From Mobula hypostoma (taxonomy: Eukaryota), in NCBI RefSeq assembly GCF_963921235.1, contig NC_086097.1, forward strand, positions 125,366,001 through 125,430,000: a stretch of DNA of 64,000 nucleotides, written 5' to 3'. Position numbers and translations under genes: made by a program. This document shows, one piece after another, positions 48,407 through 61,821 of the stretch (the first letter of the stretch is position 1; each line of letters begins with the position of its first letter). The notes below the pieces were generated by a model that was not told the DNA's origin, ran no database searches, and was given only the letters and a program-made list of their open reading frames with translations.

Positions 48407-48877
<471 letters not shown>

Positions 48878-54430: not shown

Positions 54431-55340
54431 AGAACAATTTACCAGCCTACCAATCTGCATATCCTTCTAATGAGGAAGGCAACCCATGTGGTCACAGGGA
54501 GAATATGCCATTTTGTTGAGTTTTGAGGAAAACACAGACAAAGGTTCAGGAATACTGGGTGCCATTGACCTAACACCACTTCACCAACCCATCCACCCTC
54601 ATCCCAACAGTACAGAAATAAATCCAGTGATTCTCTGTTGCACTCTCTTTATTATGAACATATCCTTCCCGGGCGGGGAGACCAGGCCTGTAGTAGGCTC
54701 ACCAAGAAGCAACATGAAGGCTTTTTCACTCTTGTACTCAAAATGCTCTTGCAATCAAAGTCAATGTACCACCATTTATCCTCCTGAACTCCTGTCTGAT
54801 TCTGCATCAATATTCGGATTCAAGCCTAATTTGGAGTATTGTGGTCATCTATCTACAGGAAAGATATTGAGAAGATTAAAGGAGTAATGACAAAATATAC
54901 AAGGACTTGAGGACCTGAGTTATAGAGAAAGGATGAATAGGTTAGGATGTTATTCTCTGGACTGTAGGAGAATGAGGGGAAATTTGATAGAGCTATACAA
55001 AATATTGAGCGATAGAGATAGGTTAAATGCGAGCTCAGGGTTTTGCCACTGAGGTTGGGTGAGCCTAGAACTAGAGGTCACAGGTTGAGGGTGAAAGGTA
55101 AAATATTTAAAGGTGAATTTCTTCACTCAGAGGGCGGTAAGAGTGTGGAATGAGCTGCCAGCGGGTTTTGTTTTAAAGTTTGTAGGGATGGTTTTGGGGA
55201 TAGAGAGGAGTTAGAGGTCAGGTTGGATTTTGGATCAGGGATGTAGGAGAGCTAGAGGTCAGGCCGGAGTCTAGACATCTGCTCTGCACTCCACGTTCAA
55301 AGGCCAGTGATGTAGACTGGTGACAAAGGACACCAGGAGT

Positions 55341-55733
55341 CCAGGCCTCCACTATGTGTCCAAAGGCCAGGCCTCCACTCCGTGTCCAAAGGCCAGGCCT
55401 CCACTCCGTGTCAATAGGCCAGGCCTCCACTCCGTGTCAATAGGCCAGGCCTCCACTCCGTGTCCATAGGCCAGGCCTCCACTCCGTGTCCAAAGGCTAG
55501 GCCTCCACTCCGTGTCAATAGGTCAGGCTTCCACTCCGTGTCCAAAGGCCAGACCTCCACTCCGTGTCCAAAGGCCAGGCCTCCACTCCGCGTCCAAAGG
55601 CCAGGCCTCCACTCCGTGTCAATAGGCCAGTCCTCCACTCCATGTCCAAAGGCTAGGCCTCCACTCCGTGTCCAAAGGCCAGGCCTCCACTCTGTGTCCA
55701 TAGGCCAGGCCTCCACTCCGTGTCCATAGGCCA
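55341..55733. repeat. 26-bp minisatellite, about 15 copies
   Basis: Unit AGGCCAGGCCTCCACTCCGTGTC followed by CAA, AAT or CAT. Confidence 0.95.
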
Positions 55734-56064
55734 GCGATGTGGATGTGTGATGAAGGATATCTGTGGATATTGGGCAGTTCCAGGTCAGTGGGTCCCAGGA
55801 TTGGATGTCCATGTGAGCAGGAGGCCTGAGGCGAGCCTGGAGTTCAAGGGCTAGAGTTAGGAATCCCATCATCGGCTAGTCCGGGAATCAATACCAAAGA
55901 TCAAAGCCTGAGATCGATCATAAGGCTGGAAGTTGAAATTTGATGGACGAAGCTTTGAGGTCTGTCCTGGGTTAGGAGGACTGACCATGACTGTGGATTG
56001 ATGGGAGGGAGGAAAGAGACTTTTTTTTTGCTGTTGCTTGTTATGTTCTGTATTGTTCTACCCT

Positions 56065-57897: not shown

Positions 57898-58177
57898 TGT
57901 GCTGCTAAACAAGAGTATAAATCTAAAATGCACCCAGTCTCGTTTTTGCTCTCTGGAACACCGACAGACTGGGGTTACGGCCGCTGCAATGAGAACAGTG
58001 GAAGTGTGCTGCAGTGAGAGAAGATCGAAGTGCACACTTTGCAGAAGGTATTTGTAACTTGATGTAACTTGAAGGGTTTACTGAATGTTTAGCATTTGTC
58101 TTAAATAGTTAACTTACTTACTGGTAGTGAGTGTCTTGTGTCCCCACTCACCGAACCCATGAACCTAATTTCACACA
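57898..58177 (+). repeat. ERV 5' LTR (start uncertain)
   Basis: Shares GTAACTTGAAGGGTTT, GTGTCTT-TGTCCCCAC and AACCT-ATTTCACACA with the 3' LTR. Confidence 0.7.
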
Positions 58178-58179
58178 AT

Positions 58180-58200
58180 TGGCACTGCAAGTAGGGTTCG
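58180..58200 (+). other. Primer-binding site, tRNA-Ser-like
   Basis: TGGCACTGCAAGTAGGGTTCG two nt after the LTR end; resembles the recalled complement of the tRNA-Ser(TGA) 3' end, TGGCGCAGCGAGCAGGGTTCG. Confidence 0.65.
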
Positions 58201-58569
58201 GTGATTGAACGGAAGTGTGAGGAGCACTGAGTCCCAGGGTGGACTGACGACGGTGCAGATTTGGGGGTCTCCCCAGCCTACAGGCGGGCCACAGTGCACC
58301 AGTGGACTGGTCAGACCAGATGGACACCCACTGGGTGAAAATAGGACAGCACATTGTGTCTGTGCTTAATGAGGAAGGGTTCCCTGAGAGAAAAGGGAGC
58401 CAGGGAGGTGCTTTCTGGCTGCAGGGGTAGTGGCATCAGCACATCCCCTGCTGCTGCTGATGCTGTGCCTCCAGTACCAAGTCTCCCAGAAAAAGACTGC
58501 TTACCAACGGGGTCCTGAGCAGAAGGCAGGCTTTGAAATTGCCACGTCTAACAATTCAACCTACAGAGA

Positions 58570-59800
58570 GGACTGTGCTCAGCAGTCTTCTATTTTCAAG
58601 AAGAAGTGGTACATTGCAGACAGGGTAGAGAAGGGTCCCAATAGGGTGGGCTGCCTCCGTGAGCAGGTCATATCTCTCCCTGGTAACGACCACTACACTC
58701 CGATGAAGTTCCCACCATCAACCCCTCATCCATTAGAGTGGGGTAAACCCTAAAATGACCATACTGCTGAGTAGAAACAGCAAGTCTGGTTTACTGACGG
58801 CTCCAGCGATTGATGGAGTGGCAAGGACTGGTGGAAGGATGCTGCTCTCCACCCTGTGTCAAGGAGGGGTGTTACCCAGAAGAGTGAGGGGGATCTAGCC
58901 AACTGGCTGAGCTGGTGGCCCCTCCAGGAGGCAATGAAGCTATGAGGATCTACACCAATTCCTGGGCAATGACTAATGGCATGGCAGTGTAAATACCTCA
59001 TTGGCTTGGGCGGAACTGAGAGGTGCACAGGCGACCTCTCTGGGAGCATTCCTATTGGGAACGCACCTGGAAGGATGTGCATCAACGTCCAATCATAGTC
59101 TACCATGAGATGCCCACAGCACTCAGGACACTGAGGCCATACATTATGCTGCTGTCGACCGAGCTCCGCAGATTATGACAGCCACAGTGTTTTCCAAGGA
59201 GGAGAACATGTGCCTTGCGGTATGGGCACACCAGAAGAGTGGGCATCTATGGGAGGGTAAGCGGCAAGGAAATGGGCAAAAGCCCAAGGGGTGGTGTTGA
59301 TTTTTTGATGAGACCAGGGCAGCAGTTGCGAGCTGCCCTACCTGTCAGCAGGTTATGCTTGGGGGGTAGCCAAAGGGTCCCCGGGAAGCATCCGAAGGGC
59401 ACGGGGACTAGTCAGGTATGGCAAGTAGATAGGTTGGGCCTCTGCCATCACAGAACAAGAGACAATATGTGCTCACAATGGTGGACACATATTCCGGTGT
59501 CCTACTGGTGGTGCGGTGCAGCCACGCTGACCAGGAAAGCACACTAAAAGGCTTGCGGCACTGGTCATCCATGTATAGGATCCCCTGCGAGATCCAGTCG
59601 GACAATGGCTCACATTCTGCAGGAGCCAAAATCCAGGGGTGGGCTGCGGAATCCAGCGTTCTGTGGATGTTCCACATCCCATACTACCCACAGGGGGCAG
59701 GGCTGATCCAGTGTATGAACGGGCTGTTGAAACAACAGATTAAGTTGTGACCCCCATCCGCACCTTTCAGGGGTGGCTACCTGTGCTGTAACAGGCAGTG
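58570..59800 (+). pseudogene. ERV pol remnant (connection, RNase H and integrase)
   Basis: AQQSSIFKKKWYIADR..GP...LREQV; QVWFTDGS (58781); SQLAELVA; IYTNSWAMTNG; WQVD (59419); LTMVDTYSG...IQSDNGSH...WMFHIPYYPQGAGLIQCMNGLLK. Confidence 0.88.
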
Positions 59801-59816
59801 GATGACCAGTGCAATA

Positions 59817-60110
59817 AAACACACAAAATGCTGGAGGAATTCAGCAGTTTTAGGCAGCATTTATGGAAATGGAAAATTGGGTGTTGATGCACATTCTCCC
59901 AGATACGTTCCCAATAGGAGTGCTCCCATTCGCATATTCTTGCTTCTTGCTCTGACTTCTCATCTTTTTTTCTAGTCCTGGTCAAGAGTCTCAGCCTGAA
60001 ATACCAACTGTTTGTTCATTTCCATAGATGCTGCCTAGCCTGCTGAGTTCCTCCAGCATTTTGTGTGTTTTGCATTGAATTTCTAGCATCTGCAGATTTT
60101 TCTCATGCTT
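59817..60110. mobile_element. Short Penelope-derived fold-back element inserted between ERV pol and env
   Basis: About 55-nt inverted repeat AAAACACACAAAATGCTGGAGGAATTCAGCAG / CTGCTGAGTTCCTCCAGCATTTTGTGTGTTTT around a decayed hammerhead. Confidence 0.7.
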
Positions 60111-60399
60111 GTGACAACCAGTGGGCCCACGAGGATCCGCTATGTCCTGGCACTCAGCAGTGTCGTATTCTCCAGAGGTGGAATCGGAGGAGGAACTGGG
60201 GATGGTTTGGGTTCAACACCCACAGGGGCTACCAGAGCAAGGGGAGATTATGGCACATGGATCAGGGAATAAGCGATGTGTGATTTTACCAGAGGAATGG
60301 GAGATAATCTGTCTAGATACCCAGTGACTAACCAGGTGGGAGTGAGTTTGTGTCTCCCTACATTACAGAATGGAAAAGTGGTGGAAGCTGACGGCAATG

Positions 60400-61400
60400 G
60401 TGATGTGTTGATCGGTGTGAGATCCTACAACACATTCCTACGGATGACATATGAGCACGCAAACCACATCAAAGCTTTGGACTGTTGGATCTGCATGAGG
60501 ACACAACCCACGCTGCAGAAGGGGTGCCTCTCTTTAACTCAGAAGAACAGCTCAGCTTCTCGGGATTTGCATTCCGTTCTGGGGAAAGCCGAGAGCGAAC
60601 AGTCGATTCTATCCATAGTATGGGAATGGCCTTAAAGAACTGGAGTCACAGTAACCCCGGGTGGAGTAAGGGCTGGTTCTTCCCTATTTAAGATTTGACT
60701 AATCCCAAGAGTAATCCCTCTGCCAAGAGAGAAGTGGAAGAAGTGTTGGTGCAGGCAATATGATGAGCACGGGTCCAGTCAGTCAGTGGAGCACAGTGAG
60801 TGCGAGCAGAAACAGTATCCTGGGAAGCAGTGAAGATAGGTGCTCCCTGGACGCTAAAAGGTTCTTCCTGGATATGCAGCTCCCAGGCTTCCCACAGCTA
60901 CTGCAATCCGGGGTACGTAGTACCATATATCACCTTAATAGCCTGGACGAGCACCCTGCCCATGACGGTCAGCACAGTAAGAAGCAGAAAGGTGCTGGAT
61001 GATAGCTTTTCTCTCTAACTGCTACGCATGGCCCTTGTGATGGAAGCACTGCACAACAAGACGGCCGCAGCGCTCAAGCATACGGTGGCCTCACAAAATC
61101 AGACGACCTTGGACTACCTGCGCGCAGAGAAAGGTGGCATCTGTGCTGCAATTGGACAAGAGCGCTGCACCTACATCCCCGACGAGTCTGGGAACATTAC
61201 TCATCTGGCTGATCATATCCCGTAATCAATAAATGAGATCAGAAAAGAAGAGAGCCCTGGGGGTGGGGCGGTTGAGCTGATGGCCTTTTGGGAGGCCGGT
61301 GGGCTGCTGCAAAACACTGGGTAGCAACTAGTGGGTTAATAATTCTGGGTATCATAGTGTGACATTTTCTGTGTAGTATAGTGGGGCGTCCCAAGGGTTT
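60400..61400 (+). pseudogene. ERV env remnant, gamma-type (covalent SU-TM)
   Basis: SU CxxC motif CWIC (60483-60494); TM immunosuppressive-like QNQTTLDYLRAEKGGICAAIGQERCTYIPD; hydrophobic anchor WVATSGLIILGIIV. Confidence 0.85.
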
Positions 61401-61451
61401 TGCTAGCCTACAGGACGAGTACCACAGTCTTGCATCTTTCGAGGGGTGAAA

Positions 61452-61821
61452 TGTTGTGGTAAGTATTAATCTTATCTGTTCACGGAAAGCCACTCCGCTC
61501 TGCTAGCTTGGGATTGGTCCGTTTAAGGAGCGTTGCAGCCCTTCAACTGGCCGCTGGTTGGCGCCACGATGCCAGTGGATGAGTCACAGTGCAGCTAGAG
61601 TATGAATCTAGCACGGTGAAAGCACCAGGTTTCCTATTAGCTCTCTGGGTCACCAACGGGCTGGTGCTTGCAACCAGTGCTGCAGCAAGAGAGGGCCAGG
61701 ACGCGGATGAGCTGAGCATTTGTAATTGGGCGTAACTTGAAGGGTTTGCTGAATATTTGGTTAAGTTTCTTACAGTGTGTCTTTTGTCCCCACACTGAAC
61801 CTGCAAACCTGATTTCACACA
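61452..61821 (+). repeat. ERV 3' LTR (about 370 bp)
   Basis: TG...CA, preceded by a purine tract; 3' part homologous to the 5' LTR. Confidence 0.8.

Follow-up and report, generated by a model that had tools for sequence, protein, structure and literature searches.

A decayed, env-bearing class III endogenous retrovirus lying antisense in a 5'UTR intron of NCALD in Mobula hypostoma

The 64,000-nt stretch of Mobula hypostoma DNA analyzed here (NCBI RefSeq assembly GCF_963921235.1, contig NC_086097.1, positions 125,366,001 to 125,430,000 of the forward strand; hereafter the window, with positions counted from its first nucleotide) contains an endogenous retrovirus (ERV) at 57899-61821 on the + strand. 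This element is very probably a decayed, internally deleted provirus of an env-bearing class III family (HERV-S/ERV-L-like, clade Huo) that lies antisense in an intron of the 5' untranslated region (5'UTR) of NCALD, where it is likely inert. A long terminal repeat (LTR), a primer-binding site (PBS) of the serine-tRNA type, a gag stub, RNase H (RH) and integrase (IN) regions, a gamma-type env, a polypurine tract (PPT) and a second LTR follow one another in this order. An earlier interpretation made from the DNA letters alone (the sequence-only reading) had proposed the order LTR-PBS-pol-env-PPT-LTR, which is indeed present, and all five pol motifs that it quoted, the CWIC motif and a CX6CC-like motif with Arg at one Cys position were seen in the translations.

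Structure of the Element

The 3' LTR (61452-61821, +, 370 nt), which was delimited by LTR alignment and genome matches, starts with TGT directly after the PPT (61442-61451, +) and ends with ACA, as in class III HERV-S/L-like (clade Huo) ERVs. Its genome search gave 44 matches, from 40 of 66 candidates scored. The 5' LTR recognized in the sequence-only reading is present, but as a remnant that retains only its 3' part (57899-58177, +): the outer ~137 nt of the 3' LTR have no counterpart in it, a multi-copy host repeat adjoins it upstream, and no copy of the missing part was found elsewhere in the 64-kb window. The alignment of this remnant with 61589-61821 comprised 224 columns with many indels, and its Kimura two-parameter (K2P) divergence was 0.24.

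The 18-nt PBS (58180-58197, +) is complementary at 15 of 18 positions to host tRNA-Ser(CGA) and tRNA-Ser(UGA) genes, in agreement with the serine primer proposed earlier, and two of its three mismatches are of the CpG type. A genome search that allowed three mismatches returned 23 sites, compared with 6 in a reversed control; these were 13 serine tRNA genes, 3 genes called Leu(CAA) by ARAGORN (L045, L046, and L059) and 7 non-tRNA sites. L045 and L046, the two of these three that were compared, appear from their sequences to be decayed tRNA-Ser(CGA) genes; given that only 13 of 82 sites, the anticodon included, separate L045 from Ser(CGA), L045 would be such a gene. Five relatives of the element carry a PBS of the same type, and two carry another, presumably of the Ser(AGA) type. 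The window itself contains no tRNA genes.

Most of gag, protease and reverse transcriptase (RT) is gone. A broken gag N-terminal stub is found at 58219-58421 (+), where relatives L023, L025, L026, L028, and L037 also match; it corresponds to residues 13-80 of P0001, a 1520-residue stingray Gag-Pol that is the best match of the element's integrase (55% identity). The stub was overlooked in the sequence-only reading. A deletion of ~3 kb, a short RT piece (58417-58544, +; matched by the RT-region DNA of L032, L033, L034, L092, and L095) and a second deletion of ~0.3 kb follow. Two deletions are distinguished because the RT piece persists between the gag stub and the later pol. The latter (58547-59803, +) consists of the RT connection/tether, RNase H, and the HHCC and core parts of integrase, and a frameshift-aware alignment places it on residues 1021-1451 of P0001 with 45% identity across 414 residues. 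It is interrupted by six stops and eight frameshifts (i.e., 14 breaks), and some of its catalytic positions are changed. The integrase core is then separated by a 0.3-kb insertion of host repeats (59810-60112, no strand assigned) from the C-terminal tail of integrase (60113-60345, +), and tblastn with dUTPase-bearing Pol ends showed no dUTPase between core and tail.

A broken gamma-type env follows at 60330-61400 (+, approximate bounds), as indicated by Pfam, motifs and colinear env in relatives. It is spread over several frames and includes CWIC near the start of the surface subunit (SU; 60483, +) and a transmembrane subunit (TM) with motifs like the immunosuppressive domain (ISD) and CX6CC at 61019-61222 (+). 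The env described previously is confirmed, except that 60205-60345 is the integrase tail and not env. Among 10 segments scanned with Pfam, rve (59433-59747, E 6.6e-11) and TLV_coat (61019-61222, E 3.2e-6) were recognized, while none of the remaining eight reached the curated cut-off. This copy is unable to encode any complete protein.

It should be noted that the repeat arms of the secondary insertion, which have opposite orientations, enclose an inverted 53-nt copy (59876-59928, 87%) of pol positions 59041-59093. This inverted copy could possibly have arisen by a template switch during insertion or repair.

Related Copies in the Genome

A genome search with the integrase core gave at least 150 matches (150 of 150 scored, of 5982 first-look candidates); these counts are minimum values, and a few unrelated elements are among them. 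We examined 20 loci picked by integrase and 13 picked by LTR. The RT active-site sequence, which is deleted in the element, was recovered by pattern search as YIDD in 5 and as YMDD in 1 of the 20 integrase-selected relatives, and env-like DNA followed integrase in 9 of them. In 4 of the 13 LTR-selected loci, pol, env and the same LTR occurred in order, while one had pol and then the LTR without env. Thus, env is intrinsic to the family and is not a separate insertion, a possibility that the sequence-only reading had left open, and fuller copies with RT, which it had proposed to look for, do exist in this genome. At L094 (G000:C5:153847000-153856500), which has the same LTR, the integrase is almost directly adjoined by the LTR, with no env.

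The fuller copies show features that are lost or altered in the element. In L025, env begins at the end of pol, CWIC is found ~50 residues in, and the TM contains both an ISD and CX6CC. The env of L028 has a furin-like site, and a TM piece of L040 matched syncytin-1 and filovirus GP2 in PDB, which reflects the known likeness of gamma-type TMs. L030 and L027 share a single in-frame stop at one gag-pro position, and three further, more decayed copies are ambiguous in this respect. No Cys-His zinc knuckle pattern was found within the gag regions of the 20 relatives, and the two matches obtained were outside gag. The dUTPase core query matched none of 34 stretches at E<=1; with dUTPase-bearing Pol ends as queries, the matches were confined to the tail located behind dUTPase in other class III viruses, except for weak ones (E 0.39-0.95), and Pfam revealed no dUTPase in P0001 or P0002. 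These results bear out the earlier statement that no dUTPase is recognizable.

A genome search with the TM also gave at least 150 matches (150 of 150 scored, of 1342 candidates). Given that the longest open frame was 316 residues, there was no full-length env frame among the matches scored. In a protein search with the 68-residue TM, none of 37 candidates matched. The TM match L113 (91%, 1.6 Mb away) was considered as a recent local duplicate, which was ruled out as its DNA is only 71-78% alike. The weak integrase matches L114-L116 were set aside from the family, to which they are 25-32% alike; they have open frames of 479-1163 residues, two of the three have zinc knuckles, and they are probably young Gypsy elements.

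Phylogenetic Placement

The careful RH-IN tree retained 33 of the 63 rows of a quick tree, with short, redundant and very long-branched rows left out, and was inferred under a single-matrix model. The element grouped with L032 and L037 (100/98) inside a 10-row ray clade that includes Hemitrygon and Narcine proteins (98/93). This ray clade fell within a 26-row class III group (96/98) with MuERV-L, XtERV-S, and amphibian, fish, bird and turtle sequences. In an RT tree of the relatives (51 rows), the ray clade (98/93) was sister to the MuERV-L/XtERV-S group (95/89). We treated P0023 as MuERV-L on the strength of a mouse sequence in its cluster and of its dUTPase. P0131/P0024 were equated with XtERV-S, since a constant shift of exactly 14 separates their length and four motif positions from the published values.

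Placement together with two class I-like Pols or with three Gypsy Pols was rejected by the approximately unbiased (AU) test (p 4.6e-7 and 3e-95, respectively); the class I label of P0105/P0106 was inferred from an MLVIN_C domain. The clustering with epsilon/gamma ERVs or Gypsy that the sequence-only reading had considered was therefore not found, and assignment of this Pol to class I (gamma/epsilon) or Gypsy was rejected. A foamy-like ERV (clade Tu) was also dismissed, given the TLV_coat type of env and the much weaker pairwise scores with foamy Pol, as was ERV-L proper, given the presence of env and the lack of dUTPase after integrase.

In a panel that holds no HERV-S, snakehead retrovirus (SnRV) or foamy rows, the Pol of the element groups with ERV-L/S, as expected of class III, HERV-S/L-like (clade Huo) ERVs. 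Protein searches returned no HERV-S or PRIMA41 protein. HERV-S is primed by serine tRNA, and the element has the layout of that virus type, i.e., a serine PBS, no dUTPase after integrase and a class I env linked to pol. The element is thus built like HERV-S and is a member of the HERV-S/L-like group, an assignment that does not extend to HERV-S proper. Accordingly, the term ERV-S-like used in the sequence-only reading applies to layout; in the trees, no sampled sequence is closer to the ray clade than MuERV-L/XtERV-S are.

Genomic Context and Age of the Insertion

The first coding exon of NCALD, which is context and not part of the element, is found at 48440-48838 on the - strand (ATG at 48817), ~9 kb from the element, and its product was identified as neurocalcin delta by a match to 1bjf (E 1.4e-85), as predicted. 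The exon was joined to a non-viral upstream exon in three of four runs (two studies; RNA status presumed), and the contig of the fourth run ended at the exon edge. The upstream non-coding exon has a single genome location ~67 kb upstream, beyond the window, with GT-AG ends. Given that the coding exon is spliced to a non-coding exon 67 kb upstream, the antisense element is located within a 5'UTR intron of NCALD (67 kb), the position that had been surmised.

In another sampled organism (G), contigs span the upstream and 3' junctions of the element as well as its internal deletions; in a further one (H), they span these deletions and reach across the edge of the secondary insertion. Among the pieces listed, the difference to these organisms was ~5-8% in the element and 4-6% in the G flanks. 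The unique parts of the element lacked RNA coverage, an observation that was given no weight; none of the data sets with this sequence is recorded as RNA. The insertion and its deletions thus predate the splits from both organisms, with no sign of constraint, and the same insertion at about flank-level divergence indicates that it is old and probably neutral. The LTR divergence of 0.24, compared with ~0.06 between organisms, suggests, from 224 columns only, that the insertion is ~4 times older than these splits. Three other copies of the element's sub-lineage (L038, L091, and L093) have LTR divergences of 0.29-0.31, while four copies of other sub-lineages have 0.10-0.13; therefore, the family invaded more than once. 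The values of L025 (0.037) and L040 (0.056) were set aside for dating, since the repeat begins inside env in the former and no PBS follows the upstream copy in the latter. Absolute dating was also abandoned, as a K2P of 0.24 corresponds to ~54 million years at a mammalian rate and to ~540 million years at the shark rate assumed by Han (2015). The shark mutation rate of 7e-10 per generation (Sendell-Price 2023, PMC10587355) favors the older side of this range.

Consistent with these findings, reverse transcription in the parent virus would have started from a host serine tRNA, and Pol would have been made by readthrough of a single in-frame stop that follows a Gag devoid of zinc knuckles. The virus would have had no dUTPase, and may have entered cells with a gamma-type envelope whose SU and TM were linked via CWIC and CX6CC, motifs that are found in fuller copies. 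The copy described here entered the germ line before the splits from organisms G and H; after its entry, most of its gag, protease and RT was lost, host repeats were inserted, and its sequence drifted.

Alternative Explanations

Several points weigh against this interpretation. No target-site duplication, which is 5 bp long in class III HERV-S/L-like ERVs, is legible at the element, whose outer 5' LTR end is lost, or in 10 relatives. The PBS carries three mismatches, and one gene called Leu(CAA) ties with the serine tRNA genes at that number. Within class III, the placement of the ray clade received support of 87-89 in the RH-IN tree, neither tree includes HERV-S, foamy or snakehead retrovirus sequences, and the rows of genome copies were extracted with the stingray protein as guide, which possibly favored grouping with that protein. 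Foamy viruses are set apart by pairwise Pol scores alone (38.6 bits versus 93-118 bits for ERV-L-like proteins, from different databases). Finally, the inertness of the element is presumed, and an LTR or splice effect on NCALD is conceivable.

The truncated 5' LTR, the lack of a readable target-site duplication and the many indels in the LTR pair would also fit a recombinant or chimeric locus, in which the two LTRs came from different proviruses of the family and their divergence overstates the insertion age. We consider this unlikely, as the structure is common to organism G at both junctions, the three other copies of the same sub-lineage show the similar values of 0.29-0.31 given above, and unrelated copies of the element's LTR are 64-82% alike over long matches; the whole sub-lineage is therefore old. 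Retention of the remnant as an LTR promoter or enhancer for NCALD would fit its location in the 5'UTR intron, with the first coding exon 9 kb away, and its presence in other organisms. However, the element is antisense to the gene, its divergence (~5-8%) is not below that of the flanks (4-6%), and the coding exon is joined to a non-viral exon in three of the four runs, all of which make a regulatory role very improbable. A class I (epsilon/gamma) or Gypsy pol, or a separate arrival of env, is a scenario prompted by the class I-type TM (TLV_coat) and by the RT of L027, which scored 110 bits to the MLV type and 92 to foamy RT in PDB, where no ERV-L RT appeared. Given that the AU tests reject both placements and that many copies, some of them with the same LTR, have env behind integrase, we regard this scenario as scarcely credible. 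A decayed provirus of an env-bearing class III family thus remains by far the best-supported explanation.

Comparison with Known Retroviruses

HERV-S (HERVS, HSERVIII supergroup) shares with the element a class III pol, a class I env, and the lack of both a dUTPase at the 3' end of pol and Gag zinc fingers (Vargiu 2016, PMC4724089). It is found in another host class and was compared by layout. Because class III ERVs repeatedly acquired class I envelopes (Vargiu 2016, PMC4724089), such a common layout does not necessarily point to common ancestry. XtERV-S of Xenopus tropicalis has in common with the element family the serine PBS, TGT...ACA ends, YIDD, a stop in frame that separates gag from pol, the lack of a Cys-His box, CWIC close to the SU start, and ISD and CX6CC in TM, and its HX4HX28CX2C spacing is also found in the stingray relative P0001 (Yedavalli 2021, PMC8278194). 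XtERV-S is, however, intact and recent with a dUTPase-like segment reported after integrase (Yedavalli 2021, PMC8278194), while the element's family has no dUTPase and the copy studied is old and deleted; the two are also on different branches of the RT and RH-IN trees. MuERV-L and HERV-L share Gag and Pol homology with the family and have a dUTPase after integrase and no env, which is the reverse of what is found here.

In cartilaginous fish, the whale shark consensus Rh_ty_ERV3 heads clade Huo beside HERVL, MuERV-L and HERVS, by tip order alone, and several long motifs of its Gag are shared with P0001 in a by-eye comparison (Xu 2018, PMC6001957). Although this supplement consensus was likened through Gag and tip order only, it probably belongs to the same elasmobranch lineage as the element or to a close one. 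The CmiERV lineages of elephant shark are likewise env-bearing, but group with snakehead retrovirus or epsilonretroviruses and not with ERV-L/S (Han 2015, PMC4422223). Clade III accounts for 2843 RT loci in six cartilaginous fish genomes, the majority of ERV RT loci (Blanco-Melo 2024, PMC11089739), a foamy-like ERV is reported from catshark (Song 2023, PMC10699275), and the supplements of a screen of 13 cartilaginous fishes (PMC12287698) may include the element's lineage. In the open-access literature, to which our search was confined (subscription papers and Repbase being outside its scope), no account of a ray ERV-L/S family that carries env was found. In this sense the lineage is little described, as the sequence-only reading suggested, but the whale shark consensus and the clade III loci qualify that view. 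Given that XtERV-S and HERVS share its layout, that clade III dominates the ERVs of cartilaginous fish and that a whale shark consensus is published, the element is not new as a kind, and mainly adds layout and relative age for a ray branch of a known kind.

Implications

The locus itself is an ordinary dead provirus. The family, in contrast, is an abundant env-bearing HERV-S/ERV-L branch in cartilaginous fish, with older and younger sub-lineages and an insertion common to species. It makes it possible to test whether env is ancestral in the HERV-S/ERV-L group and was lost in ERV-L, and when dUTPase was gained, while the shared insertion can serve for calibration in a host lineage that evolves slowly. 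A broader and rather doubtful proposal is that a long-lived clade of env-bearing, dUTPase-free, serine-primed class III retroviruses is specific to rays and sharks, with several invasion waves and co-divergence with elasmobranchs. If so, the ancestral state of the HERV-S/ERV-L group would be env present and dUTPase absent, and orthologous insertions would give the clade a minimum age well above 100 million years.

Additional Observations

P0001 belongs to a cluster with at least 13 related RefSeq models from Hemitrygon akajei, and several of these bear the name "Friend virus susceptibility protein 1-like", a name that RefSeq gives to stingray Gag relatives. Near-identical integrase matches were found on the small contigs C122, C135, C137, C140, C148, C162, and C163, which suggests amplification inside a larger repeat. 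At L117 (G000:C123:196500-206400), a copy of the family on a small contig, the RT active-site segment is repeated six times within one 404-residue frame. In the window, a tandem array with a 26-nt unit in ~20 copies is found at 55260-55812.

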